A stretch of 64,000 nucleotides of DNA from a virus, in the UHGV virus genome UHGV-0198106; one strand, written 5' to 3'. Both the position numbers and the translations under genes were made by a program. The notes beneath the pieces were generated by a model. That model was not told the DNA's origin. It worked only from the letters and a program-made list of their open reading frames with translations, and ran no database searches. Positions 11,301 to 50,568 of this stretch are shown piece after piece (within the stretch, counting starts at the first letter, position 1; each line of letters opens with the position of its first letter).

Positions 11301-12353
11301 ATGTCTTTATTTGGAAAATCAGCTTCTAGCAAAACCACAGTAGCCCCTTCCTCTCAGGTTGATGCCCTGCTGAAGCAGATTGTTGCTAATGCTCAGAATA
11401 TGCAGAACAACGATCCGGGATTCATCTCCCAACAGCTGGCTGGGTTTAATGGCAACCAACAGGGTGCTCTGAACAACTTAGCAGCTTCTACTACTCAGAA
11501 GCAATTGGCTGATATGTACACACCTCGTACACAGCAAGGGTTGGACCAATTAAACGCTCTTGCTCAACAGTATCAGAATATTGTTAATGGTGGTGGAGTA
11601 ACGGCTGAAGGGGTTAATAACTTTAGTAAAGGTTTGAATAATTCGGCTCTTGCACAAGCTACTAGCAAAGCAGCTTCTAATGTCTCTCTTGGCAATGGCT
11701 CTGACTCCGGCTCCCTCCGTAGGGCTGCGGCTCAAGGGGCTGCTTTGAATGGTGCTAACACTAACCTGTCTCGTACTATCAGTGGCAAGAACATGGGTGT
11801 AAGTGCTCTTCAACAAGATCAGAACTTCCAGAGAGGTTTGCTTGGTGCTCAGTCTGGTTTAGCTGGACAGAACCTCAATCTTGGTGCCCAAGGTGTTCAG
11901 GCAACTCAACAGGCTATTCAGAATCAACTCATGGCTGGTAATCTACAACAGCAACAAGCCCAAGCTCAAGCTGATATTAATTGGCAGAACGCTATTGGTT
12001 CTCAGCAGTATGGGTGGAATCAGCTTAACAACCAGCTTAATGTATTAAACAGTGTAAGCCCAATGGCTGGGTACACGATTAAGAATGCTGCTCCGGGGGT
12101 TAACACTGGACAACAGCTCCTAGGTGCTGGTATCACTGGATTAGGTATTGCAGGGCGTATGGGTGCTTTCTCTCCTAATCAACAGACTCAGAATGCTTGG
12201 AGTTCCTATAACAACTCAGGTGGGCAATCTGGAATGGCTGGTCCTATGATTGGAGGTTCTAATCTTTCTCAACAGAGAGGTCAGTCTAACTGGTTATCCA
12301 CAGCAGGTAGTAATATCTTAGGTGGTGTCTTAGGGGCATTCGGAGCAAACTAA
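11301..12353 (+). CDS. Q/N/G-rich virion protein (paralog A)
   Basis: AAGGAGG then ATG; low-complexity Gln/Asn-rich; N-terminus MSLFGKSASSKTT and Gly-rich hydrophobic C-terminus shared with the next gene. Confidence 0.5.
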   Translation: MSLFGKSASSKTTVAPSSQVDALLKQIVANAQNMQNNDPGFISQQLAGFNGNQQGALNNLAASTTQKQLADMYTPRTQQGLDQLNALAQQYQNIVNGGGVTAEGVNNFSKGLNNSALAQATSKAASNVSLGNGSDSGSLRRAAAQGAALNGANTNLSRTISGKNMGVSALQQDQNFQRGLLGAQSGLAGQNLNLGAQGVQATQQAIQNQLMAGNLQQQQAQAQADINWQNAIGSQQYGWNQLNNQLNVLNSVSPMAGYTIKNAAPGVNTGQQLLGAGITGLGIAGRMGAFSPNQQTQNAWSSYNNSGGQSGMAGPMIGGSNLSQQRGQSNWLSTAGSNILGGVLGAFGAN

Positions 12354-20378: not shown

Positions 20379-21200
20379 TTATTCCCAAGATTTGTTTAAC
20401 CATGACCAATCAAATAGGTCTTCTGGAGTCTGACCAACAAAGAGAAGCCGAGCATTCTCAAGCATTTTCTCTTCATCTTCAGTATCGAACTTCTTATAAT
20501 ATTCCATTCGCACTATATGATACATGGTCCATTTGTCTGTAACACCAGCTAGTAATTTAGCTGCTGCCTTCTTCCCTATTCCTTGACGTCGAAGCTGAAG
20601 CTTACCACCCCACATAACTTCTTTGCGTTCCCCACATCCGGGGATATTATCCGTACCATCTCCAATCAACATTTGATAGAAGAAGTTTTGCCATGAAACT
20701 AAATCGGATACGTAGTGAGGGGGAACCTCTTTCTGCCTTTCTCCACAAGCCCAGCGATAATGCCATCCGGGGGTTATTAATAAATCTTTGTCTCTAGTAC
20801 AGATGATAGTGTTCTTGTCTCTACGCTGCCTTTCAGCTAAAGCGTCATCTGCTTCTCTACCAAAGACGTCAATATACTCATAGTGCTCTTTGATATAATC
20901 TCCGACCGCTTTCCAGTGGAAGGGTTTCTCAGATATTGCTCGATTACCTTTATAATCCTGTTGCTTAGCGATATCGAAACGGAAGTTACCACCTTCGCTG
21001 AAGTAGAATACAACCTTACTACAACCCGAGCGAGCTATAATTGTATCAATCTTGTACTGAAGTCGTTCAATCATGAAATTGTAATCGACTGGAACACGTC
21101 CTGTGTCAAGGAATGGATGCTCCTGAGTAAGGGCACCCACCTCATATCGAAGAACATCCGCGTCCACAATTGCTACTTCAGGGAGCTTAACTTCTTCCAT
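20379..21200 (-). CDS. 5'-3' exonuclease / flap endonuclease
   Basis: Acidic N-terminal segment IVDADVLRYEVG, CTRDKDLL and H3TH-like GDGTDNIPGCG as in FEN-family phage exonucleases. Confidence 0.8.
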   Translation of the reverse strand: MEEVKLPEVAIVDADVLRYEVGALTQEHPFLDTGRVPVDYNFMIERLQYKIDTIIARSGCSKVVFYFSEGGNFRFDIAKQQDYKGNRAISEKPFHWKAVGDYIKEHYEYIDVFGREADDALAERQRRDKNTIICTRDKDLLITPGWHYRWACGERQKEVPPHYVSDLVSWQNFFYQMLIGDGTDNIPGCGERKEVMWGGKLQLRRQGIGKKAAAKLLAGVTDKWTMYHIVRMEYYKKFDTEDEEKMLENARLLFVGQTPEDLFDWSWLNKSWE

Positions 21201-24986: not shown

Positions 24987-26831
24987 TCAATGGGTGTGCA
25001 TCCAATTTAATCCAATCTGACAATCAGATGCTAATTCACAGTGCATGTTTAGATATTCTCCTGCTTTTTTAACACAAGTCTCAGCTATCTCTTTCATTTT
25101 ATCAATGTCGTTACGGTTGACAGACCACTGTGCTTCATCATGATAGTCAATCACCTTATTTCCTCTAATACCCTGCTGCTCTACCCATTTATTTGTGAAC
25201 AAAATGGAGTATTTCATGACAATGGCACCTGCACTCTGGAGTAGGGTATTCAGGGCTTTATGCACCATAACCTTACCAGTAGCATCCCGTCTCATGGTCA
25301 ACTTACGACCATCCACACCTTCAAGAGTACCTGTTTCTGCACGAGCTTGTACTCTCTCCAAGACAATTGGGATACAAGGGCATTCTGCTAAGAAACGTTC
25401 TCTGAGAATTTCACCCTCTTGAGCACCTCCTCCAACAATCTCTCCAATCTTAGCTGCGCCTGCCCCATATAGAAATCCATAGATAAAAGTTTTTGCATTA
25501 TCTCTAGTTGGTAGGCCAGCTAGTTTCTGATTGTGGGAATGGATATCACCTGAGAGAAGAACCTCTCGATAAGTATAAGCAGCCTCTAAGCCTTTCTCAG
25601 CCCTAAGATACTTAATTTTATCGTTCTCTGCTTTGGCTTCTTCCATCATGTCAAGGCACTCTTTCACAAGATAGTGCACTAACATACGCAACTCTAACCC
25701 AGAACCATCATACCCTAAGAATACTTCTTTACCAGCGGGTATGTAATATTTGTAAGCACCTACAGGTTTGTCTTTCTTCCCCGGCTTACCTTTCTCGTAA
25801 ATTACGTTAGTACCTTTTCGTATATAACAACCATCAGGAACAACGTTAGTAATAACGAAAGGACGAGAGTGATCACTGTCTGAGTTATAGTCAGACTCAA
25901 ACAAACTGCGACACTCGTGACCAAACAGACCACGGGAGGGAATATTAACCACGATACGATGTTTGAATCGAAAAGTCGGCGTAGCGCAGCTGTTAGCTTC
26001 TGCTGAAAGTTTACCATCTTCGCGTTCCTTTGCTATAAGTCCACTGATAAGACCTAGCCTGTGAGCCGCTACAACGCGTCTCTTAAGCAAACTCCCAACA
26101 CTCCCTAGCTCACCCCCTAGCCCTTCTTCAAGAGTCTCCTCGAGGTTTGTAGGAGCTGTAGGCCACTTGTTTGATGTGGCTAGTGCTTTCTTAATCTCAT
26201 CAAACGTTACAGGATTACGGCGATTCGGGTTTAATCCCAAACCAAATACGTAAGCCTTCATGTAATTCTTAGTCTTAAATCTAAAATGCTTTTCTAAGAA
26301 TTTCTTTATATCAGCGTCAACCATCTCGGCTGTCTGCTTTTGCTTAGCATTGCCTCGCATCCAAGCAGTATACCATGCTTGGTATGTTCCATACTTTCTC
26401 ATATCTTTCTTAATTTCGAAAGTATTCCAAGGCTTTTTAGATACGTTAAACTCTGGAGGAAGAAAGCCCTCATCCATAAGAGCTTCTTTAACTCGTGCAT
26501 CCTTCGATGGGTCAAAGTCTACGTATTCGACACAGGTGAAAGCTCCACCAATGTCCTCCCTCTTCAGCCCAACCCTATCACAATAGGCTTGAGGCCACTT
26601 CTGCAAAGCTCCAGACTTCTTAAACGGCTTCATATAAGTAGAGCCGTCTAATCTCATCTTAGGTAAGAGAGGAATTAGTTCTTTATCAATATTAACAATA
26701 ATCTCTTTAAGGAGGTGAACATACCACCGAGCATTTCTTCGGTTGAAACTCACTCCGTGCTTTGCTTGCTTAGAGATTATATCAGCGACAGTCATCTCTG
26801 TCAAAAATGGAAGAGCGTCCGGGTTGCTCAC
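24987..26831 (-). CDS. DNA polymerase, family A, polymerase domain
   Basis: Motif A DGSGLELR, motif B RDNAKTFIYGFLYG, motif C VIDYHDEAQW; GTG start; no exonuclease motifs in this ORF. Confidence 0.9.
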   Translation of the reverse strand: MSNPDALPFLTEMTVADIISKQAKHGVSFNRRNARWYVHLLKEIIVNIDKELIPLLPKMRLDGSTYMKPFKKSGALQKWPQAYCDRVGLKREDIGGAFTCVEYVDFDPSKDARVKEALMDEGFLPPEFNVSKKPWNTFEIKKDMRKYGTYQAWYTAWMRGNAKQKQTAEMVDADIKKFLEKHFRFKTKNYMKAYVFGLGLNPNRRNPVTFDEIKKALATSNKWPTAPTNLEETLEEGLGGELGSVGSLLKRRVVAAHRLGLISGLIAKEREDGKLSAEANSCATPTFRFKHRIVVNIPSRGLFGHECRSLFESDYNSDSDHSRPFVITNVVPDGCYIRKGTNVIYEKGKPGKKDKPVGAYKYYIPAGKEVFLGYDGSGLELRMLVHYLVKECLDMMEEAKAENDKIKYLRAEKGLEAAYTYREVLLSGDIHSHNQKLAGLPTRDNAKTFIYGFLYGAGAAKIGEIVGGGAQEGEILRERFLAECPCIPIVLERVQARAETGTLEGVDGRKLTMRRDATGKVMVHKALNTLLQSAGAIVMKYSILFTNKWVEQQGIRGNKVIDYHDEAQWSVNRNDIDKMKEIAETCVKKAGEYLNMHCELASDCQIGLNWMHTH

Positions 26832-26847
26832 TTTATACTCCTTTAAA

Positions 26848-27252
26848 TTATTGGTAAAGTAAATCTGTAAATGCTTGATTGTCAGCTATTGCATCTAGGT
26901 CATTAGGGGATACTCGGATAATGTTACCTTCAACTCTCCACGGAGATGACGTAGGTGAAGACCTAACTTCAAGAGGCTGCTCTCTGACTAGATGGGCCAT
27001 GACCCTCTGATTAGCAACTTCTTCTCTTTCTCGAATAGCTCTTTGGATGTAAGCCAGCTTCATACCCCAAGCTTCTTCAAACTCTTGAGGGTGCTTATCA
27101 CTGATAACTACATACTGACGTTCAGGTATACCAGAGCGAATCTCTGATAATAATTCATGAAACAAATCTAGTTCATGTTCAGTGAGATTCATTTCGATAT
27201 CATCCCACTTGAGGACTAAGAATCTGTTTTGATGTCTAGTTGGTAATGACAT
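26848..27252 (-). CDS. hypothetical protein
   Basis: Track ORF, 134 aa. Confidence 0.45.
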   Translation of the reverse strand: MSLPTRHQNRFLVLKWDDIEMNLTEHELDLFHELLSEIRSGIPERQYVVISDKHPQEFEEAWGMKLAYIQRAIREREEVANQRVMAHLVREQPLEVRSSPTSSPWRVEGNIIRVSPNDLDAIADNQAFTDLLYQ

Positions 27253-27255
27253 AAC

Positions 27256-27504
27256 TCAACCTTTTGGGAATGGGATCAGGTTTTCTACTGCAACGCGAAT
27301 TCCTTTGTTTACTTTTTTATTCTTATAAGAGATAAACTTCCCGTCAGCTCCACGAAGGATTACATTAGTACGAGCTGTAGAAGGGACCTGCTTGATAGCT
27401 GATACACATTGCTGGGAAGTCAATTTGGTTGCAGCGTAAAAGGTAGTTGTAATGGAGCCAAATTTAGTGTTATCAGTAATGGTTACAGTTTTTACAATAG
27501 ACAT
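27256..27504 (-). CDS. hypothetical protein
   Basis: Track ORF, 82 aa. Confidence 0.45.
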   Translation of the reverse strand: MSIVKTVTITDNTKFGSITTTFYAATKLTSQQCVSAIKQVPSTARTNVILRGADGKFISYKNKKVNKGIRVAVENLIPFPKG

Positions 27505-27541
27505 ATTTTATTTACCTAATAAGATTAATTTTAGTTTATAT

Positions 27542-27570
27542 AAAAGAAAAGGCCACCCGATTGGGTAGCC
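27542..27570 (-). terminator. rho-independent terminator
   Basis: On minus strand GGCUACCC-aauc-GGGUGGCC followed by UUUUCUUUU; just downstream of gene ending at 27576. Confidence 0.75.
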
Positions 27571-27575
27571 TCATA

Positions 27576-27893
27576 TTATGATGAGCTTAAAGCTCCTTTG
27601 CGAGATCCAGCTGCTTTTCCAGCTCGATCACCACTTTTGCCGCCGTTTGAACGGTTTGAGCTGACTGATTCAACACGTAAGTTGCTTGACGCATTAGAGC
27701 CTCCAGACTTGACAGCTCGTTTGTGTCCAACGTCTTTACCTCTGACAGCAGCTTTTCCATCGCGCTTTTCAACGATGCGACGTGCACGGTGGCGCTGAGC
27801 ATCTCCGCTCTTGCTCCCAACGCCTGTTTCACCACGGGCAATTGCGGTACGTCTTTCTTGTGCATAATCTCTCTTTCCTACATGGTCTGCCAT
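27576..27893 (-). CDS. basic Gly/Lys/Arg-rich small protein
   Basis: AAGGAG then ATG; an alternative fully overlapping frame (27587..27865) also has a plausible RBS. Confidence 0.45.
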   Translation of the reverse strand: MADHVGKRDYAQERRTAIARGETGVGSKSGDAQRHRARRIVEKRDGKAAVRGKDVGHKRAVKSGGSNASSNLRVESVSSNRSNGGKSGDRAGKAAGSRKGALSSS

Positions 27894-27949
27894 TTAGAAC
27901 TCCTTAATATATCAGTGTACACTAAGGAGTATACATTATAAGTTACTAT

Positions 27950-28687
27950 TTAAGCTTTCTTTTCCATTGCTTTAACAATCGCCTTACAGAAACCAGAACG
28001 AACAATGTCATCCGATTCACCATCTACAATCTCAGCATACTCATACAGATCGTGTTCATCAATAAAATTAGTAGCCCAAGTTAGGCCACTCTCACGACCA
28101 CGCATATCATGCTGGTTTGTATCACCCATGCAGAACAGTTGAGAGGTTTCTCCCAATCGAGTCATGATGGAGAAGGCTTCATCCTTAGTTGTGTTCTGGA
28201 ACTCGTCTACGATAACAATAGCATCATTGAAAGAACGACCACGGAGATATTCCAGAGGTACAAATTCAATGTTACCATTTCCGATTTGGCATTCATAGAA
28301 TCCCTTACCATATCGCTGAGTAATAACATCAATAATAGGCATCAGGTACGGTTCAAACTTCTCACGCATCCCTCCAGGAAGTAACCCAAGAGAGTTACCC
28401 ATGCCAACTGAAGGTCGACTTAGGATGATCTTCTGAATCTTACCACTCTTCAGTGCATCAATAACCGTGGAAGTGATTACAAAGGTCTTACCACAGCCCG
28501 CAGGAGCGTCTGTGAACACAACTTGTTTAGTCTTAATAGCATTGAGTAGCTCAGACTGAAACTGGTTCTGAGGGACTACAGGCTTTGCTAAAACCACCTC
28601 TTCATACTCTCGCTTACCCTTACGAGTAACAAGTGCTTCCCGACGAAGATCTTTCCGTGATTCTTTCCGTGATTGACGACGACTCAT
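27950..28687 (-). CDS. phoH: PhoH-like P-loop ATPase
   Basis: Walker A APAGCGKT and overall PhoH-family layout. Confidence 0.85.
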   Translation of the reverse strand: MSRRQSRKESRKDLRREALVTRKGKREYEEVVLAKPVVPQNQFQSELLNAIKTKQVVFTDAPAGCGKTFVITSTVIDALKSGKIQKIILSRPSVGMGNSLGLLPGGMREKFEPYLMPIIDVITQRYGKGFYECQIGNGNIEFVPLEYLRGRSFNDAIVIVDEFQNTTKDEAFSIMTRLGETSQLFCMGDTNQHDMRGRESGLTWATNFIDEHDLYEYAEIVDGESDDIVRSGFCKAIVKAMEKKA

Positions 28688-28869
28688 TTACGCTCTCCAA
28701 TTTCTTCGTAATGACACTCAGTGGTTAAACAGTCTTTACAGATTGCTGTATAAACCCTGACGTTAGTAAATCGTTTGTTCTTCCCTTTGGTTGGAGAGCC
28801 TTTGGCAAGCTCTCTGATAACCTTGTTACTTAAATGAAGGTTTGTTCCTTCGCATTTAGAGCACTTCAT
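28684..28869 (-). CDS. small zinc-ribbon protein
   Basis: 61 aa with paired CxxC motifs (CSKCEG ... CKDCLTTEC). Confidence 0.45.
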   Translation of the reverse strand: MKCSKCEGTNLHLSNKVIRELAKGSPTKGKNKRFTNVRVYTAICKDCLTTECHYEEIGERK

Positions 28870-29185
28870 GGTTCATATCTTTATGAATCCTGTAAACAGC
28901 TGTAGCCATACAAGCAACAGCCTCATTATGTGGGAGGTGCATCCCTGTAGAACCATCCCAATCCCTGAACTCATTGTCAAAGACTCCGGTAGGATCTGGA
29001 TACAAAGCTTGCAACTCAACCAAATCATTAGCAACTTGTTGCCATTTATCATCAGACCAGATAGGGTCATCCAACCAGTAATACAAATAGGAATGGATGA
29101 TCAATTGCCTTCTGTGCCGATTGATTACTTCAGCGGGACTTATCTCACTTCCATTTGAAGTCTTAAATGTATTACTGTCAATCAT
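28856..29185 (-). CDS. standalone NAD-dependent DNA ligase domain-Ia-like protein
   Basis: RRQLIIHSYLYYWLDDPIWSDDKWQQVANDLVELQALYPD resembles the LigA N-terminal Ia segment; only 109 aa, no ligase catalytic domain. Confidence 0.4.
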   Translation of the reverse strand: MIDSNTFKTSNGSEISPAEVINRHRRQLIIHSYLYYWLDDPIWSDDKWQQVANDLVELQALYPDPTGVFDNEFRDWDGSTGMHLPHNEAVACMATAVYRIHKDMNHEVL

Positions 29186-29388
29186 TATGAAAATTTCCGT
29201 TCTGTTAAAAAGTACTGAACTTCATTATCCGGAGACCAAACCTTTTCTCCATTTACTAATTTCTTAGCATCTTTGTATGAAACACAATCCAAAGCAGGAG
29301 TATCAGGTGTTGGTTTCCCTAGGAAATATTTCCAAGTCCAACGTTCTCCATCATCATCTTGGCAGTCAAAAGTCCACAATGTTTTCAT
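29185..29388 (-). CDS. hypothetical protein
   Basis: Track ORF, 67 aa. Confidence 0.4.
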   Translation of the reverse strand: MKTLWTFDCQDDDGERWTWKYFLGKPTPDTPALDCVSYKDAKKLVNGEKVWSPDNEVQYFLTERKFS

Positions 29389-29403
29389 TTCACAACCTTA
29401 AAT

Positions 29404-29646
29404 TTAAATGTTGTTGGGTGAGAATAATTCCACACTGTCAAGCATGTAGTAGGAGTAACCAAAGGGTTTGGCTGTTAAGTTGGAAACCCTTTTATCAAAA
29501 AGAGATTGAGAAACATCCTCTTCTACTCCAACATCCTCAAGCTGCTGCTTTGTAGGATAGTCAGTGAAAGAGCAAAGAATTTCTGTATCCTCTCCTCTGT
29601 CTGTATCCTCAACACGACTCAGAATCCAAATATTCTTCCTAACCAT
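29404..29646 (-). CDS. hypothetical protein
   Basis: Track ORF, 80 aa. Confidence 0.4.
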   Translation of the reverse strand: MVRKNIWILSRVEDTDRGEDTEILCSFTDYPTKQQLEDVGVEEDVSQSLFDKRVSNLTAKPFGYSYYMLDSVELFSPNNI

Positions 29647-29647
29647 T

Positions 29648-30304
29648 TTAATTCTCCAAAGTTTTCTTCAAAGCTGCCCATGAGACTGGGTAGAGCTTAG
29701 CCATTTCTTCATCTAGAGATTGGGCAAACACTCGAACTTCATACTGAGCATGAGAGGAGAGTCGCTGACGACACAACTCAAACCAGCCATATAAAGAACC
29801 AGTCCACACCCACTCAGTGATCATCCCCTGAGGAAGAACAAATCGGGCTTGCTCTGGTGCAACGAATTCAATCAACTTGTCATATGCTGCTAGAGAAGCT
29901 TCATATGCATCGTTAATCAGCATTAATGCTTCAGCTCGTTCTCCGTTGAGGAGTTGAATCCCTGAACCTGCATGGAGGTCCGAAGGTCTCGCAAAAATCT
30001 CTTTAGGGATGAAGACTTCAACTGCTCCATCTTTATACCGCCGGGACATTTCGTTCCACGAGAATCCAACCTGATGCTTGCCCAACTGTCTCGCAATTGC
30101 GATAGGTGCTTTGCATCGGAAACTGACTTGCGGGTGTCGGAATGGAGTACAGTGTTTTTCCCGTGCAAGGAAGTTGATAAGTTTTGTGTCTCTCTCATTT
30201 AAGTCACCTTCTCGAACAACACCGAAAGATACTCTAGCTGCATTGACTACAGATTTGTCACTTCCCATTGCTTCAATCAGTGTTGCTTGTAGTTGTTCGT
30301 TCAA
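29648..30304 (-). CDS. ThyX-like (flavin-dependent thymidylate synthase family) candidate
   Basis: Weak match to ThyX signature region (FRH...S...SRRY); sits among nucleotide-metabolism genes. Confidence 0.4.
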   Translation of the reverse strand: MNEQLQATLIEAMGSDKSVVNAARVSFGVVREGDLNERDTKLINFLAREKHCTPFRHPQVSFRCKAPIAIARQLGKHQVGFSWNEMSRRYKDGAVEVFIPKEIFARPSDLHAGSGIQLLNGERAEALMLINDAYEASLAAYDKLIEFVAPEQARFVLPQGMITEWVWTGSLYGWFELCRQRLSSHAQYEVRVFAQSLDEEMAKLYPVSWAALKKTLEN

Positions 30305-30743
30305 TTAAAAGTTCCTTTTTTCGATTCATGTAAACTTGATGAGCTTCTTCGGCAGTTCCATACATACCTAGATGTATATCTACTTTATCAATACAAATAA
30401 CAGCCCTATATCTGATAGTGCCTGATCTGTATTTGACAACCTTAACACCTTGAAGCCCTGTTTCCTTGTTTGATACTCTAGCCCCGAACTGGTTGTGGCA
30501 GTTTGTCGAGGTGTCCACCAACCTCAAGTTCTGTATTGAGTTGTTCTTCTTATTTCTATCGATATGGTCTATCTGAGAAGAAGGCCATTCTCCATAGTAA
30601 AAGAACCATGCCACTTTATGAGCTTTGTGTACTTTCCCTTTAAACCGCAGGGTTATGTACTTACTTCGAGTTCCTCCTAATTTCTTACCTTTTCGAAAGA
30701 ACTCTCCAGTTTCAGGGATATACTCTAAATCATCGATTACCAT
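30273..30743 (-). CDS. HNH homing endonuclease (HNH_3 + AP2-like)
   Basis: IDHIDRNKKNNSIQNLRLV HNH motif; overlaps both neighbours, typical of free-standing homing endonuclease insertions. Confidence 0.7.
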   Translation of the reverse strand: MVIDDLEYIPETGEFFRKGKKLGGTRSKYITLRFKGKVHKAHKVAWFFYYGEWPSSQIDHIDRNKKNNSIQNLRLVDTSTNCHNQFGARVSNKETGLQGVKVVKYRSGTIRYRAVICIDKVDIHLGMYGTAEEAHQVYMNRKKELLIERTTTSNTD

Positions 30744-31008
30744 TCAGAGCTGTATCCAAAAATGCTTTCAGGTTTGCTTCAGTCTGCATACCAGAGAGGC
30801 TGTAGTGTGCACCACTGTTACGGTCAGGCACAACGAAAGCAGGGATACTTCGTACACCATACTTAACAGCTTGTTCACGACCATCACCTTCAAGGATGTT
30901 AATCTCTTCCACTTCTACATCAAACTCCTTAACAACCTTCTCAAAGGTAGGAGCCATTGCTTTACATGGAGCACACTGATCACTATAAAACTTAATTACT
31001 TTAGACAT
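30730..31008 (-). CDS. thioredoxin-like protein
   Basis: CxxC redox motif QCAPCK in a 92-aa thioredoxin-fold-sized ORF. Confidence 0.7.
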   Translation of the reverse strand: MSKVIKFYSDQCAPCKAMAPTFEKVVKEFDVEVEEINILEGDGREQAVKYGVRSIPAFVVPDRNSGAHYSLSGMQTEANLKAFLDTALNGNR

Positions 31009-31016
31009 GTAAATCC

Positions 31017-31196
31017 TTATGCAGTCAGGAGGTGAAGCAGGAACGGGATAACAACAGCTACGATAACCATGATGGTTGATGCTGTTTGAATCTCACCTTT
31101 CTTATCAGGAGTTTCTTCAATAAGCTTACCAGAAGCCCAATAAATACCACCACCGATAAAGATAGCCCAAATACCCCATACGATTGCTGATAACAT
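31017..31196 (-). CDS. small two-TM membrane protein (59 aa)
   Basis: Not in track; AAGGATAT upstream of ATG; MLSAIVWGIWAIFIGGGIYWASGKLIEETPDKKGEIQTASTIMVIVAVVIPFLLHLLTA. Confidence 0.4.
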   Translation of the reverse strand: MLSAIVWGIWAIFIGGGIYWASGKLIEETPDKKGEIQTASTIMVIVAVVIPFLLHLLTA

Positions 31197-31256
31197 ATAT
31201 CTATATCCTTATAAATAAGTTCGCCCCACCTCGGGTTAGGAGGCAGGGCTTGAGTT

Positions 31257-31820
31257 TTAGTAAGACACATCACCACTGGAATGGGACATGTTACTCTTGA
31301 CGAAGTAACAATACTTGCCAAGACCTTCATTAATTTCTTGAAGCATACTCTGGTCGACAGGATAGGAGGCTAAATCGCCATCAAACTCATCCATCTTCTC
31401 GATAATACACATCAAGGTCATGCACATATCAGAGAGCATACCGTCCATATCTAGGTCAGCATTACCCTCTGAGAACCAAGCGTGAGAAAGATAATTAGCT
31501 GCTGTAGCATCCACCTTAACACAGTGGTATCGCATACGTTCAGCAATACGATCTCCTACTTGTCGTGCGTAATCTTCCAGCTCATCAAACATACCATGAA
31601 CACCCTGAAATCCTGCACCAGAGACGTTCCAGTGGTAGTTTTTAGCTTTGATATGCAAGAGTTCCATGTTAGCTTGTAAGCAGCTCAGGATGTGTTCTAG
31701 GCTGTTTCCACTAATCATACCCTGCATTGTTTCAAGGCGAGAGATTGAAAGCTCAGACCGGTCTAACACACTATAGCTGTCACGACCAATCTCAGGTAAA
31801 TCAAAGACATTCTTATGCAT
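31257..31820 (-). CDS. Dps-like ferritin-fold protein
   Basis: Dps signature NYHWNVSGAGFQGVHGMFDELED; start placed at ATG 31820 after GGAGAAAA (track ORF begins at 31868). Confidence 0.65.
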   Translation of the reverse strand: MHKNVFDLPEIGRDSYSVLDRSELSISRLETMQGMISGNSLEHILSCLQANMELLHIKAKNYHWNVSGAGFQGVHGMFDELEDYARQVGDRIAERMRYHCVKVDATAANYLSHAWFSEGNADLDMDGMLSDMCMTLMCIIEKMDEFDGDLASYPVDQSMLQEINEGLGKYCYFVKSNMSHSSGDVSY

Positions 31821-32142
31821 TTGGGTTTTCTCCATCAAGTTCAACTGAGTTAGCAACGTTACGTGCAATATTATCCATTACCTGCTGGGTAATTACGATG
31901 CAGTTCTGTGGGTCTACTGACTTAGAACGCCCCATTTCAGGGTCATACACCTTAACTCGCTTAGCAGTTGAACCTGTAACCTGAAGAACCTTCAACAGAT
32001 ATCCCTGATTACCGATAGACCAAGCAACAACATCACGATTCTTGATAAAGCGACCAAGCATATCACGATGATAAAACTGTTGCATCACCTTGGATTTTGT
32101 AATCTCTTCAGTGGGCGGGGCCACTTTACTCAAATCTAACAT
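31813..32142 (-). CDS. hypothetical protein
   Basis: Track ORF, 109 aa; 8-nt overlap with the Dps-like start. Confidence 0.45.
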   Translation of the reverse strand: MLDLSKVAPPTEEITKSKVMQQFYHRDMLGRFIKNRDVVAWSIGNQGYLLKVLQVTGSTAKRVKVYDPEMGRSKSVDPQNCIVITQQVMDNIARNVANSVELDGENPNA

Positions 32143-32214
32143 AACTCTCTCCTGTAAAATACAAATTCTTATTGTACTCTATATACATTTGAGAGTTATC
32201 ATATCTACTACCAA

Positions 32215-32409
32215 TTAGTAGTGCACTTTTCCACTGATATAAACACGACCAGAGGAGTACTCCTTGGCCTTATGAATACTAACGCTCTTAGTTAAGTCCC
32301 CATGGAACATAGACTTTTTAAAATCTCGAGCCTGTTGACGAGTAGGTAATGCGGTCATAGTCATACTTCCTGATGCCCACTTAATCTTTGCTAACCAGAA
32401 TTTTTTCAT
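32215..32409 (-). CDS. hypothetical protein
   Basis: Track ORF, 64 aa. Confidence 0.4.
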   Translation of the reverse strand: MKKFWLAKIKWASGSMTMTALPTRQQARDFKKSMFHGDLTKSVSIHKAKEYSSGRVYISGKVHY

Positions 32410-32451
32410 TTATCTTTCATCCACATTAAAAGAGAGATGAAGTAGACTTCA

Positions 32452-33006
32452 TCATACCATATCAGCATGATTTGTTCCACCAAAAGCTTTTGTTGGCCCT
32501 TGTTGATTATTATAGGAACCTTTCGTTGCGTAGCTATCCTCTTCCGAGGAGGAATGTTTAAAGAACTCCATTTGACCTATACGCATCCCCGGTTTAATTA
32601 GCAAAGAGTGGTGCTGTAGGACATTCTTGAATTCCATAGTTAACTGACTGCCATGCCAACCGCCATCAGCATGACCAGCGTGCATGTGCTCTAAGAAGCA
32701 ACGACCGACAGTAGACCGTAGCATGAAGTCACAGCTAATGTTGTCTGGAAGGTTGAATGTCTCCACTGTATGAGCTAAGAAACACTCACCCGGTTTGATC
32801 ACCAACCCCTCCTCTGGAATCATAACCTCATTGAAGTTAGGGGACTCTTTAGCAGAGATATCAACAACCCCATTAGCTGCACCTTCCATCAGAACGCGAT
32901 CTCCAATACGAACATCAATGCTGGAGGAATTAACAGCTGAGTGTGGTGCATCAATAACACCATCGTCAATTAATTTATGTAACTCTGGGCTTCCTAGTAA
33001 ACTCAT
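32452..33006 (-). CDS. dcd: dCTP deaminase family protein
   Basis: Collinear with the Dcd/dUTPase fold: IDVRIGD, IKPGECFLAHTVETFNLPDN, GWHGSQLTMEFKN, IKPGMRIGQMEF. Confidence 0.85.
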   Translation of the reverse strand: MSLLGSPELHKLIDDGVIDAPHSAVNSSSIDVRIGDRVLMEGAANGVVDISAKESPNFNEVMIPEEGLVIKPGECFLAHTVETFNLPDNISCDFMLRSTVGRCFLEHMHAGHADGGWHGSQLTMEFKNVLQHHSLLIKPGMRIGQMEFFKHSSSEEDSYATKGSYNNQQGPTKAFGGTNHADMV

Positions 33007-33027
33007 TCTTATTCCTTAGTTATTTGT

Positions 33028-34314
33028 TCACATTTCAAAAGAGAAACCGCGACCCGATTCATCGGCAAACCGAACTGTACGGGTTTGAGGTTCTAATACT
33101 TCAGGATTATTTGAAACAAATTGATCAGCGCGACTCTCTACCATATCTTCATCAGTCCACACAGCCCTAACAGGTGCGTTGATATCACCAACAGCAAAAC
33201 CCTGACCAGAGAACTGACGTGCGCCGACAGTAAAGCCATTTGATCGACCACGAGAAGGTCTAGCCATCCATTGCTCCATAGAATCGCTTGTAATACCAAG
33301 ATCTTCAAAAGATATTCTACGAGTAGGGCTTACTCTTCGTGACTCTTGTGCTCGACGCATTGTAGGGGATACAAAAACCCCTTCAATTGCATTGTGTCGG
33401 TTAGAGTCTTCTTCTCGACCAAGCAGATCACCACCCGTGTTAGTTGTTAAATTTGTCAACCCTTCAGACCAATACGCATGAATCTGGCTAGAGCTATGAA
33501 TGCTTGACATTAACTGAATCTCTTCATAAGGGATCCCAAAGAATCGACTCATGTCACGATTAACACAATAATGAGCACTTGTTGTATCCTCAATAAGAGC
33601 AACCTGACCTCGTTCGTTGACCAGATGACTAACTGGTTGAGGTGTAGGAAGGTATCGAGTTTGTGCCATATATTGATATGCAACAGATGGATCGGAGAAT
33701 CTTAATACCTGTGAATTAGGCCACTTCTTGTGAACATACTTGATTTCACGACTAGAGACAACCACTGGACAAGGAGAGGTCATAGCCAAATATCCCTGGG
33801 GGGTCATGAACAGCTTGTCAAGAGTCATCGCACCACGGCACATCATAGGAAAATTATCCAATACCTCTTCAATAGAAGTAGGATAATTAAACATGAATTG
33901 GATACGAACCCCATTCCACTGAAACTCAATAATATCAGTGAATGTTAGTTGAGAAGTCCCAGTATACGGCTCATCTGTAGATTCAGCAAGAAGGGATGCA
34001 TATTCAATATCTTGTGATTCTAGCCATTCCTTCACATTACTTTCAACCTCTCGTCCGAGATCTTGCCACTGGTCATGGTGGATAAAGGTATTTCGAGTTC
34101 TTGGGGCCTGTCCTCTGACAATAAAGATATCAATGTCATGAGGTGCTCTGTTATTAAGAACAGCATCACGAACAGCCCCACCAGTGATGATGGGACAAAT
34201 ACAGTCTGGAATCAAGTTGTTGTTAATCAACTGTTCAATGAAGTGACGACCAACAGTGATATCAGGTTGTTGAGCAACCTTATCTGCAATTCGGTTAATC
34301 GGGATAACAATCAT
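33028..34314 (-). CDS. class-II (CCA-type) nucleotidyltransferase with Arg/Ser/Gly-rich tail
   Basis: Head-domain motif IITGGAVRDAVLNNRAPHDIDIF; C-terminal ~150 aa low-complexity RS/RG-rich; start trimmed to ATG 34314. Confidence 0.55.
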   Translation of the reverse strand: MIVIPINRIADKVAQQPDITVGRHFIEQLINNNLIPDCICPIITGGAVRDAVLNNRAPHDIDIFIVRGQAPRTRNTFIHHDQWQDLGREVESNVKEWLESQDIEYASLLAESTDEPYTGTSQLTFTDIIEFQWNGVRIQFMFNYPTSIEEVLDNFPMMCRGAMTLDKLFMTPQGYLAMTSPCPVVVSSREIKYVHKKWPNSQVLRFSDPSVAYQYMAQTRYLPTPQPVSHLVNERGQVALIEDTTSAHYCVNRDMSRFFGIPYEEIQLMSSIHSSSQIHAYWSEGLTNLTTNTGGDLLGREEDSNRHNAIEGVFVSPTMRRAQESRRVSPTRRISFEDLGITSDSMEQWMARPSRGRSNGFTVGARQFSGQGFAVGDINAPVRAVWTDEDMVESRADQFVSNNPEVLEPQTRTVRFADESGRGFSFEM

Positions 34315-34315
34315 T

Positions 34316-34873
34316 TTACATTTTCCAATATAATGAAGGTGGGTCGTAAGGGTCAAATCCTGTGAGTTCACACAAGTATTTATAAACCTTAACAGTTAAG
34401 TTAACGTCCTGTTCACAATAAGTAAACATATCCTCAGTGAAAGCATCCCATGCTTCCTCTTGCTCACCGTAATCACCTTTAAGTTCCCCTAAGAACTCAC
34501 CCCATTGCTTCAAGCCATGACCTCTTGGGCCATGTCTAGGGTCGCCTTTCGGATACTCAGGACTGTCACCAATACGGTCAGGTTTAAGATATCGACTAAG
34601 ACATAAAGTGTCGAAGACGTTAAAACGATAGTCGATCAGATTGGGATACATTTTCTTCAGAGCACAAAGGTCGAAGTCAATAATGTTATGACCTAAGATC
34701 ACATCAGCTTCTGTAAGCTTACGAATCCCATCTTCAATTTGGTGAGGCCGATAGCCCCACCTTTCATCAGTTTCAACATCGAAAATATAAATACACCACA
34801 CTTTGGTTATATCATCGTATAGTGCATTACTCTCGATATCGAATGCAAACACTTTCTTCTTTTTCTTTACCAC
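34316..34873 (-). CDS. 3'-5' proofreading exonuclease (DEDDy), separate gene
   Basis: Exo I FAFDIES, Exo [11 protein letters not shown], Exo III YCEQD; GTG start. Confidence 0.8.
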
Positions 34874-35121
34874 GGTGAAGCTCCATCTGCTTGACTGACG
34901 AGAGAAGCTGCATCCTCTCCGTTAGTTAAAACGAATGGATTATCTTCGTCAACTTCAAAGTCTTCCCTTTCTACAAGTCTGCCGGTCTCACTGATATACT
35001 TAGTATAACAGACACCTGTCTGACCGTAGTTACGTTCTTTCAGTAATCGAATGACTGAGAGGTTCTTAGCTAAGCCATCAGCTTGCTTGTCACGCTCAAA
35101 GCCAATGATACACTGACACCA
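34867..35121 (-). CDS. primase-helicase, 3' exon (C-terminal segment)
   Basis: Encodes [36 protein letters not shown]..., collinear with the C-terminus of T7 gp4-type helicases; no own canonical start; exact splice junction uncertain by ~20 nt. Confidence 0.55.
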
Positions 35122-35747
35122 CAAAAGTTCAGATATGATCGCTACTCATACCCCGCACCACTACATGCTGCTTACAGTTTCCTGCAAGATCGGACTATCT
35201 CACCACACAAAAGTGTGCCTACTGCTTCCATTTAAGTCAATGTTAATGACACCACTTGGCTGTACTTCGGTCTTATGACCACCCTAGTCTCTGCACTTTC
35301 TAAACAGTCTTCCGTTTATAATTAAAGAAATTGTAACCTCTCTGAACATTCTCAGCGTTGGTTACCCACTCCAAATTAGTTGCCACGTTATTATCTCTTG
35401 TATGGTCCAAGTGATCAATAAATGGATAATTGTGAGGGTTAGGAACAAAGGCAATAGCTACTAGTCGGTGCATGTAGAATTTCTTTCTTTGTCCCGTATC
35501 CATTCTTAAGTAAACAGTTAAATATCCGTTGCCATGTCTGGCCCCTAAGATAACATTGCCTGTTTTACTATTATAAATCGTACCATCAGGCCGCACCCAA
35601 TAATTAGATGCACCTTCTATTTGTTTCTCTTCCATAAAGCCTCCTTGCTCTTGGAAGACTGTCTAGCTTAGCTCAGGATTGGCATATCTTTCGACTTAGC
35701 TTTCCCTGAGTTCAATAGGTTTTACATGCGCAGGTTTGTTTACGCAT
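35122..35747 (-). mobile_element. group I intron candidate carrying an HNH homing endonuclease ORF
   Basis: About 620 nt insertion between helicase motif H3/H4 region and the C-terminal exon; contains a complete HNH ORF; boundaries approximate. Confidence 0.5.
35300..35635 (-). CDS. intron-encoded HNH homing endonuclease
   Basis: HNH_3 motif IDHLDHTRDNNVATNLEWVTNAEN with N-terminal YWVRPDGTIYN module. Confidence 0.7.
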   Translation of the reverse strand: MEEKQIEGASNYWVRPDGTIYNSKTGNVILGARHGNGYLTVYLRMDTGQRKKFYMHRLVAIAFVPNPHNYPFIDHLDHTRDNNVATNLEWVTNAENVQRGYNFFNYKRKTV

Positions 35748-37277
35748 AAGGGAACGAGAACCAGTGAACTGCACTTCACGTACCTGTCCACCTTCTTCGT
35801 GAGGAGCACCACCTGCCGGAGCATTGAGGTGAGATAGAACGAAAGCGGTAAAGTCTAATTCTTTACACATACCAGCAAGCTCGGAAGCAATCTTACTGAT
35901 TTCAGTGTTAATCTCTGAAGGTGTTAAATGAGATACCAGAGCGGTAATGTTATCAAGGATGATAAACTTACACTGGTTTTCAACTACCCAGAAACGGATA
36001 CACTGTTTAATGTCTTCCCATTCGTTCTGTCCGAAGTTGTCATACAAGAAGAATTTGTCTGCATAACGAAGTGCTTCATTACGCAAATCCTCCTCATCAT
36101 ATTCAACATCTGGTCGGTGGAAAGGAATAGATGCTGACTTACCAGCAATGTTCTTAACAGACATGCCTACCTTCTCTTCCAAGAAGAAGCCACCTCCATT
36201 AAAACCATGCTCTAAGCACAGATGAGCAACCAGCTCGTGAGCAATGAGTGTTTTACCACTCCCTACTCCACCACCAATTGCTACCACCTCTCCCCATCGA
36301 ATACCGAAGGTCATTTCATTCAGAGTCTTCCACGGATAGGGGATACCCCATTCTGCTTTCTTCAGAGCATCATCAAGACAATCAAAGATTGTTACAGCAC
36401 CAGCAGGAGATTCCCGCTTTGCTGAATACTTGAGAATGTTGAATAACTCTTGACCACGACCAGACAGAAGCATGTCATTCGCATCCTTAATCTCTTTCTC
36501 CACACCGTTGTATGGGAAAGTTCCTTTAGGAATACGAGCAAACTTGACATGAGGGAATAAAGAACGACCTTTTGTTAAAGCTATCTCACCTGCATCATCG
36601 TTGTCCATGCAGAGCACAACCTCCTCAAAACCATTTACGAAGTCTCGATTACGAGACAACACAGAAGAGATTGAACCTGCACCGAACGGTAAAGAAACAC
36701 ATGCTGGCTTAATGTTTGTTGCATTTGTAAAAGCTGTAAGGACATGGAAACCAGACATACAAGATAGCGGGTCTTCAAAAATGAATAGCTTCTTGTTGTA
36801 CACATCACCACGCTGAGCCTGTGCCATACCAAATAAATCTGCTTCTTTCACACTGCCAACGTAATAAAACTTCTTACTATCTAGCAGTTTAACCTCGTAA
36901 CCAACGATGTTTCCATCACGTTCACGAGGAAAGAAGTAACTGTCTGGTGTCTGACCATCAGTTTGGCTGAGGCCAATGCGACACTCAAAACGCTCTGATA
37001 CGGCTTTAGGGATTAAACGTCGAGTAAGTTCACCCTGAGGAAGCTCTAAGCAATCATCTAAGACTTCTCTCAACTCTTCAGGGGATAACTCTTTCTTCTC
37101 GTTTGGAGTAGGTGTAGTGCCCTTTTCGAACACTTCGTAATTCCCACAACGGTTACAACTTCCCCACTCCTCACCGGTCTCTTCGTTACGGAAGAGAATC
37201 ATGTGGTTGTGGGTTTTATCACGACCATGAGAGATACATTCCTTACAGCCTGTGTCTCCCAAAATGATCTTTGACAT
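35742..37277 (-). CDS. primase-helicase (T7 gp4-like), 5' exon
   Basis: Zn-ribbon (CKEC...CNRCG), TOPRIM CMDNDDAG, helicase Walker A GGGVGSGKT and Walker B FIILDN; collinear with T7 gp4 through QFTGSRSL; track ORF runs on into the intron to a stop at 35712. Confidence 0.8.
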
Positions 37278-50464: not shown

Positions 50465-50568
50465 AAGAGCTCTTAGCGAGGGTGACAGGACTCGAACCTG
50501 CATACTCCATTTACTTCTTTAACGACCGCTTAGAAGGCGGGGAAGATACACCCTCACTAAGAGCTCTC
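50465..50568 (-). other. structured element: 20-bp inverted repeat enclosing tRNA-like T-arm and anticodon-like hairpin
   Basis: Arms aagagctcttagcgagggtg / caccctcactaagagctctc; on the minus strand GCAGGTTCGAGTCCTGT (T-arm-like) and CCGC-CTTCTAA-GCGG (UCU anticodon-like loop); no canonical D-arm, so not called as tRNA. Confidence 0.3.

Follow-up and report, generated by a model that had tools for sequence, protein, structure and literature searches.

The stretch of 64,000 nucleotides analysed here (the window), UHGV virus genome UHGV-0198106, encodes a family-A DNA polymerase of the T7 gp5 type on two separate genes. The polymerase motifs were found on one open reading frame (ORF) and the DEDDy exonuclease on another, each ORF with its own start codon, and 7,484 nt separate the stop of the exonuclease gene from the start of the polymerase gene (Table 1). 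T7 DNA polymerase recruits the thioredoxin of its host E. coli for processivity. T7 gp5 is a single polypeptide of 704 aa, whereas the window has two proteins and a phage-encoded thioredoxin. Both halves are similar to T7 gp5 and have intact catalytic residues, and the related split sequences have a common breakpoint, are monophyletic and keep the same gene order; together this points to a single split replicase. We consider it probable that the replicase is derived from a T7 gp5-type enzyme, the gene of which was cut once in the exonuclease/polymerase linker, and that the two halves reassemble non-covalently. Judged from the sequences, such a two-subunit enzyme would be the best and most economical reading.

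The original prediction, an earlier note made from the letters of the window, had described an exonuclease and a polymerase as separate ORFs, and both are present on the minus strand at exactly the coordinates it gave. Its claim that they represent one family-A polymerase split in two agrees with homology, predicted structure, synteny and phylogeny. It had counted about fifteen genes between them; many genes are there indeed, and our own count is 17 minus-strand ORFs.

Megablast of the flagged 9.9 kb region gave matches in ~100 phage genomes, nearly all from Escherichia phages of the genus Kuravirus. The best matches were FH3, ES17 and SU10 with 92-93% nucleotide identity, and at least 80% of the region was covered by 57 phage records (80-95% nucleotide identity). 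So the window belongs to a well-sampled phage genus, and by nucleotide similarity it is assigned as the genome of a Kuravirus (Gordonclarkvirinae, phiEco32-like) podophage infecting E. coli. Genes across ~20-58 kb of the window are on the minus strand.

Exonuclease and polymerase genes

The exonuclease ORF matches Pfam PF01612 (DNA_pol_A_exo1) with E=4e-8, and its best PDB match by sequence is T7 gp5 residues 3-182 (E=4.5e-11). The five DEDDy residues (D12, E14, D68, Y152 and D156) are invariant across 42 homologs. The AlphaFold2 model of the protein had a predicted local distance difference test (pLDDT) score of 93.8. When this model was compared with the PDB by Foldseek, the top 27 matches were all T7 gp5 chains (E~1e-10), and the next were phiVC8 DpoZ, family-B polymerases, ExoI and RNase T, with E of 1e-5 to 1e-4. 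Because T7 gp5 ranks far above ExoI and RNase T, the exonuclease is by ancestry, as judged with the predicted fold, the proofreading domain of a polymerase and not an RNase T- or ExoI-type nuclease.

In a search of 5.8 billion proteins all homologs of the exonuclease were stand-alone proteins of ~100-250 aa. A HMMER scan of 1.84 billion representatives gave stand-alone exonucleases mixed with domains of fused polymerases as best matches, and there the exonuclease was just as close to the stand-alone proteins as to the N-terminal domains of fused polymerases (590-690 aa). The start codon of the gene is a GTG with GGAG 7-8 nt upstream, and it overlaps the stop codon of the preceding primase-helicase gene.

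The polymerase ORF matches Pfam PF00476 (DNA_pol_A, E=1.9e-20), and T7 gp5 is again the best PDB match (E=1.6e-37). Across 53 homologs D375 of motif A, R443, K447 and Y451 of motif B and H564 of motif C are invariant, and D565 and E566 of motif C are nearly invariant. The protein also aligns to T7 gp5 with MAFFT and BLAST. Motifs A, B and C align with those of T7 gp5, and the two enzymes have the same catalytic motifs, including the Tyr corresponding to T7 Y526. The AlphaFold2 model (pLDDT 92.1) had T7 gp5 chains as its 27 best Foldseek matches in the PDB. Compared with T7 gp5, the window polymerase has three further insertions: one of ~85 aa follows the thumb, one of ~44 aa precedes motif A and one of ~25 aa follows it. 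Its gene has its own Shine-Dalgarno sequence AGGAG and a GTG start.

The exonuclease and the polymerase, when joined, align over the whole T7 gp5, and the break is at about T7 residue 200, in the exonuclease/polymerase linker. No surplus sequence of intein size was found at either terminus in this alignment. These data bear on the possibility that the split is merely apparent, with halves joined by an intron, by trans-splicing or by a split intein, or that it comes from an assembly error. It is true that this module harbours group I introns: one is in the helicase gene of the window, another in the polymerase gene of the metagenome contig L011 (102 bits). However, the halves are kept apart by 7.5 kb with 17 translated genes, Rfam gave no intron elements at the 3' end of the exonuclease gene or at the 5' end of the polymerase gene, and a ribosome-binding site and a start codon are present for each gene separately. 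An intein half would find no room at either terminus, since exonuclease and polymerase meet directly in the T7 alignment. On these grounds an origin by intron, trans-splicing or split intein was rejected. An assembly artefact was rejected as well, given the 57 phage records sharing the region; the same arrangement is present in ~100 independent genomes. Such explanations keep hardly any probability, and the separation of exonuclease and polymerase is a true gene fission, unlike the sporadic introns of the module.

Table 1. Features of the window discussed in the text. All are on the minus strand.
Feature	Position	Size	Remarks
Separate 5'-3' exonuclease, T7 gp6-like	20385..21200		Downstream of polymerase gene; found by tblastn
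Family-A DNA polymerase subunit	24987..26831	614 aa	Thumb/palm/fingers, motifs A, B, C; homologous to T7 gp5 ~200-704
Thumb insertion	26427..26660	Polymerase residues ~58-135	Homologous to C-terminal half of T7 thioredoxin-binding domain
Cargo block	26832..34315	7,484 nt, 17 ORFs	Size and content vary between lineages (1.7-9.6 kb)
Exact middle-promoter motif TAATGTATA	27930..27938		Between phoH and the ORFs leading to polymerase gene
NAD+-binding Ia domain alone of NAD-dependent DNA ligase	28856..29185	109 aa	PF22745, E=7e-35
Free-standing HNH endonuclease	30273..30743		PF13392; between thyX and thioredoxin gene, overlapping both
Phage thioredoxin	30730..31008	92 aa	CAPC active site; PF00085, E=2.2e-13
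phiEco32-type middle-promoter motif AAATGTATA	32182..32190		Upstream of ORF 31813..32142
Nucleotidyltransferase	33028..34314	~428 aa	CCA-adding-enzyme-like; directly after exonuclease gene
Predicted 3'-5' proofreading exonuclease subunit, DEDDy	34316..34873	185 aa	Homologous to T7 gp5 residues 1-~199
Primase-helicase exon 2	34867..35121		95% identity to SU10 residues 509-596
Insertion in primase-helicase gene, predicted group I intron	35122..35741	620 nt	HNH ORF 35300..35635 in a loop
Primase-helicase exon 1, T7 gp4-like	35742..37277		PF03796 and Toprim; gene immediately upstream of exonuclease gene

Two side observations concern the polymerase gene itself. At 26776..26804 (minus strand, polymerase codons 10-19) it contains a perfect match to the extended sigma-70 consensus (TTGACA, 17 nt, TG-n-TATAAT), identical in SU10 and Bas91. 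An internal promoter within the first 55 nt of the ORF was considered, but the -35 element is lost in L011 (84% protein identity), so the match was taken as probably a coding coincidence. L011, a Kuravirus-like contig from an ENA metagenome, also has an ORF-less group I intron at polymerase motif B (11354..11617; RF00028, 102 bits), as a result of which gene callers give polymerase pieces of 454 aa and 139 aa. The intron at motif B explains the ~450-aa polymerase matches P0013 and P0015-P0017, and probably also that of BUCT695.

Age and spread of the split

Polymerase homologs down to ~36% identity in the search of 5.8 billion proteins were all polymerase-only, except for shorter N-terminal pieces. 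In a joint alignment all 28 polymerase-only relatives (at least ~36% identity), among which are the LUZ24-like PUTH1 and the Lahexavirus LAh_8, have their starts at one position, give or take a few residues. They have 7-14 residues before residue 10 of the window polymerase (none in the truncated P0049), compared with 141-214 in the fused forms. The more distant relatives (21 of 21) carry an N-terminal exonuclease domain matching the window exonuclease, with E down to 8e-42. In a neighbour-joining tree built from 403 columns of the polymerase domain, which has no bootstrap support and is indicative only, the split sequences were monophyletic (28/28) and the fused forms were the nearest outgroups. 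The shared start position and the one clade with fused forms outside it point to a single old fission. As far as these sequences can tell, the simplest history would be one fission in the linker of the two domains, after which each lineage gathered cargo genes of its own in the gap.

The order primase-helicase, exonuclease, cargo, polymerase was kept in all loci compared, namely SU10, Bas91, LAh_8, PUTH1 and four metagenomic contigs; the original prediction had proposed such a synteny comparison with related phages as a check. The cargo between exonuclease and polymerase was 1.7 kb in PUTH1 (Bruynoghevirus), 2.5 kb in L008 and 3.2 kb in L007 (both metagenome), 7.5 kb in this window, 8.1-8.6 kb in SU10 and Bas91 (Kuravirus), 8.3 kb in L006 and L011 (both metagenome) and 9.6 kb in LAh_8 (Lahexavirus), where it includes an anaerobic ribonucleotide reductase. 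The phiEco32-like phages phiEco32, SU10, YF01 and Bas91 have the same two genes in the same order with 87-97% protein identity; SU10 and Bas91 differ from the window in lacking the HNH gene between the thioredoxin gene and thyX and the HNH-bearing intron in the helicase gene. LUZ24-like phages (Bruynoghevirus) and Lahexavirus share the breakpoint, the gene order and the monophyletic polymerase-only clade with the window, but the LUZ24-like polymerases are shorter (~545 aa).

The split arrangement and its interpretation are already known, as they are annotated in GenBank and described in print. Both genes are annotated as "DNA polymerase" in the SU10 record, and the small gene is labelled "DNA polymerase exonuclease subunit" in the records of Bas91, LAh_8 and PUTH1. 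Separate genes for polymerase and 3'-exonuclease were reported in 2012 for all LUZ24-group phages (PMC3517423); that paper cites Savalia 2008 for a similar separate organisation in phiEco32. The separation was also described for all Kuravirus-like phages (PMC9965538). Such a genome feature is ordinary; our results confirm a peculiarity of phiEco32-like and LUZ24-like phages that had been published and annotated before. New here are the end-to-end coverage of T7 gp5 by the two proteins, the common start position and clade, the gene order across genera, and the kept thumb segment. What remains of value is an experimental system for a naturally split T7-type polymerase and its use of thioredoxin.

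Proposed assembly of the two subunits

The history could be pictured as follows. An ancestral T7 gp5-type gene would have been cut once, long ago, where the exonuclease domain passes into the polymerase domain. The exonuclease gene would have stayed directly after the primase-helicase gene, the polymerase gene would have gained its own ribosome-binding site and start codon, and the gap would have become a zone collecting nucleotide-metabolism genes and homing endonucleases. The two proteins would reassemble into a proofreading replicase working with the gp4-like primase-helicase, comparable to E. coli Pol III.

In the Pol III core (alpha + epsilon) proofreading and polymerisation are likewise on separate, associating polypeptides. 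It is a functional analogy: its polymerase belongs to the unrelated family C, and the arrangement is of unrelated origin. The split B-family polymerase of PhiKZ (DNAP-N/DNAP-C) forms, by biochemical evidence, a stable 1:1 complex together with the processivity subunit Rhc (PMC13648687), and in the literature we found this to be the only split phage polymerase with demonstrated assembly. It differs from the window in its family, in its split point and in having a clamp-derived processivity factor instead of a thioredoxin. Our literature search found no biochemical test of the heterodimer or of the thioredoxin role in the phages studied here.

The exonuclease could also be independent of the polymerase, acting in repair or degradation or together with the helicase, which would leave the polymerase without proofreading. 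The overlap of its gene with the primase-helicase gene, to which it is probably translationally coupled, fits such a role, and so does its place in an early transcription unit to which the polymerase gene does not belong. However, the nearest relatives by both sequence and fold are polymerase proofreading domains, with T7 gp5 at E~1e-10 compared with ~1e-4 for ExoI and RNase T. Moreover, the exonuclease is always accompanied by a polymerase-only gene, the start of which coincides exactly with the end of the exonuclease, and the fused outgroups have the same exonuclease domain. We regard an independent exonuclease as improbable.

Returning to the two-subunit replicase, three points weigh against it or against its link with thioredoxin. 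One is the limited support of the tree given above. Another is expression: if the transcription maps of phiEco32 and SU10 are transferred by homology, the exonuclease belongs to the early unit and the polymerase is two middle promoters downstream. The upstream motif (32182..32190), at the position of the promoter described upstream of SU10 CDS68, is where early genes give way to middle genes between exonuclease and polymerase, and the downstream motif (27930..27938) is the counterpart of the promoter that SU10 has between CDS56 and CDS57 (PMC4281155). The subunits are therefore not strictly co-regulated and do not come from one regulated unit, but this separation does not prevent assembly because early proteins persist. 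The last point is that no thioredoxin was detectable in the fetched DNA of LAh_8, PUTH1 and L008, all of which have the split polymerase. A 70-aa ORF in the cargo of L007 is weakly thioredoxin/glutaredoxin-like; it is below all Pfam cut-offs and was not counted as a thioredoxin.

Thioredoxin and the thumb segment

The original prediction had noticed a thioredoxin-like gene in the gap, and the match of this ORF to the Pfam thioredoxin family (Table 1) bears it out. The protein had 31% identity to residues 25-108 of E. coli TrxA, and its PDB matches are thioredoxins. It is without the N-terminal ~21 residues of TrxA, and hence without beta1-alpha1 of the five-strand architecture. The CxxC site is CAPC, where TrxA has CGPC, and the cis-Pro is in an "RSIP" motif. 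Homologs of this protein were found in only 113 phage records, all of phiEco32-, GAP52-, 7-11- or Privateer-type, that is, enterobacterial podophages of the C3 morphotype. As the thioredoxin lineage is limited to these phages, it is a later addition to a polymerase that was already split.

The polymerase has, like T7 gp5, a thumb insertion, and in both phages a gp4-type primase-helicase lies upstream. HMMER aligns polymerase residues 63-135 to positions 289-357 of 1skr_A, the chain numbering of which runs 6 below full-length T7 gp5. MAFFT aligns the segment to T7 as well, and the block REDIGGA-FTCVEYVDFDPS matches T7 REYVAGAPYTPVEHVVFNPS. The segment is ~29 aa shorter than its T7 counterpart, and the missing part is the N-terminal loop. 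Residues P69, F70, G74, G96, F98, F106 and D107 are nearly invariant, and the segment is among the best-conserved parts of the N-terminal half; with pLDDT ~90 it is modelled as an ordered, folded module. In T7 gp5, E319, T327, V329 and E330 are reported to contact thioredoxin (PMC5984650), and these residues align with E92, T99, V101 and E102 of the window polymerase. The kept homology to the T7 thioredoxin-binding domain makes a thioredoxin-type processivity partner plausible.

This partner may be host TrxA, the phage thioredoxin or none. In 2021 a coupling of the conserved phage thioredoxin to the polymerase was hypothesised, by which processivity would be improved (PMC7881722), and annotation papers have returned to the idea from that year on at the latest. 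The phage thioredoxin would then be a dedicated processivity factor, and the three proteins would form a holoenzyme independent of host TrxA. It is in line with this idea that the polymerase keeps the thioredoxin-contacting part of the T7 domain in a strongly conserved segment, and that R73, I75, P76 and G92 of TrxA are kept in the phage protein. The thioredoxin is a core gene of C3 podophages (PMC4281155, PMC7881722) and is 97-100% identical among most kuraviruses. Thioredoxin and polymerase are in the same class: by homology to the same maps both are middle genes behind TAATGTATA-type promoters, and both proteins were detected by proteomics in SU10 preparations (PMC4281155). No ribonucleotide reductase is annotated anywhere in the genome of Bas91, a close relative. 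On the other side, the T7 loop exceeds the thumb segment by ~29 aa, and this segment is equally conserved in L008, PUTH1 and LAh_8, the split lineages without a detected phage thioredoxin. The phage protein has no N-terminal strand and helix, has CAPC, and carries the changes G74S, K90L and A93M at TrxA surface positions; T7 gp5 uses R73, G74, I75, K90, G92 and A93 of this surface, and in T7 binding is abolished by TrxA G74D (PMC5984650). E. coli offers its own TrxA, the one that T7 uses. Kuraviruses grow on E. coli K-12 derivatives (BASEL collection, PMC11990801), and no paper linking Kuravirus to trxA dependence was found in the literature. We consider a dedicated processivity role of the phage thioredoxin rather doubtful.

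The phage thioredoxin might otherwise be a redox enzyme for nucleotide supply or redox balance, for example in reducing host NrdAB, while the polymerase uses TrxA or no partner. Its CxxC site is intact, and its gene is located among those for dCTP deaminase, ThyX, PhoH and a Dps-like protein. The thioredoxin lineage is missing from other split-polymerase lineages, which also suits a redox role. ThyX, however, is not dependent on thioredoxin and uses flavin and NADPH. To our knowledge, the thioredoxin of cyanophage Syn5 is the only phage thioredoxin studied experimentally so far. It is redox-active, no binding to the polymerase at the T7-type site is predicted for it, and its authors favour a redox role over processivity (10.1101/2025.10.05.680603); this precedent speaks for a redox enzyme in the window and against a processivity factor. 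The redox role leaves two things to explain: the missing annotation of a phage ribonucleotide reductase as client (Bas91), and the conservation of the segment resembling the thioredoxin-binding domain. We put its chances at about even, and so lean slightly towards a redox function for the phage thioredoxin. Whichever role the phage protein has, the polymerase may use host TrxA.

A more elaborate arrangement would be a three-gene holoenzyme in C3 podophages, in which an early exonuclease is made with the helicase and is joined by the middle polymerase and an N-terminally truncated phage thioredoxin that takes the place of TrxA as processivity clamp. We think this unlikely. If it were true, the phage would be freed from a host factor, and fidelity and processivity could be tuned during infection.

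Cargo block and neighbouring genes

Among the cargo ORFs, a nucleotidyltransferase, a dCTP deaminase, a Dps/ferritin-like protein, the thioredoxin, an HNH endonuclease, ThyX, an Nlig-Ia domain protein and PhoH could be called. The remaining ORFs are small, and had no match or were outside the search. The nucleotidyltransferase has a weak poly(A) polymerase/CCA-adding head (PF01743, E=2.5e-4, just under the cut-off) and a long C-terminal region without domain match. The Nlig-Ia protein is annotated as "DNA ligase" in relatives and is far too short for a ligase; it may modulate host LigA. The free-standing HNH endonuclease has no counterpart at the same spot in SU10 or Bas91, and the label "integrase" which its counterpart carries in several GenBank records looks like a misannotation.

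Exon 1 of the primase-helicase gene has 99% identity to residues 1-516 of the SU10 primase/helicase. The insertion between the exons has no counterpart in SU10, where the gene is intact (596 aa), and the junction is clean. It gave a full-length match to RF00028 with 40.2 bits (E=1.2e-8), which is under the gathering score of 50, and it is bounded by U at the end of the 5' exon and G at the end of the insertion. With these features it is predicted to be a group I intron with an HNH homing endonuclease. None of the GenBank phage records contains the whole element, and only pieces of 40-77 nt match, some of them inside the polymerase genes of other kuraviruses.

The separate 5'-3' exonuclease downstream of the polymerase gene had 95% identity to residues 1-272 of the Bas91 "exonuclease" by tblastn. 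Upstream of the primase-helicase gene, PUTH1 (L009; 551..6662) and Bas91 (L003, L005; 50503..57756; both in record coordinates) have a common block with an amidoligase, a COOH-NH2 ligase, a glutamine amidotransferase, a RimK-like "S6 glutaminyl transferase" and a gamma-glutamyl cyclotransferase. This suggests one early module inherited by LUZ24-like and phiEco32-like phages. The window has one tRNA gene at 50477..50555 (minus strand; RF00005, 30.2 bits), which is probably the tRNA-Arg annotated in Bas91 beside a homing endonuclease.

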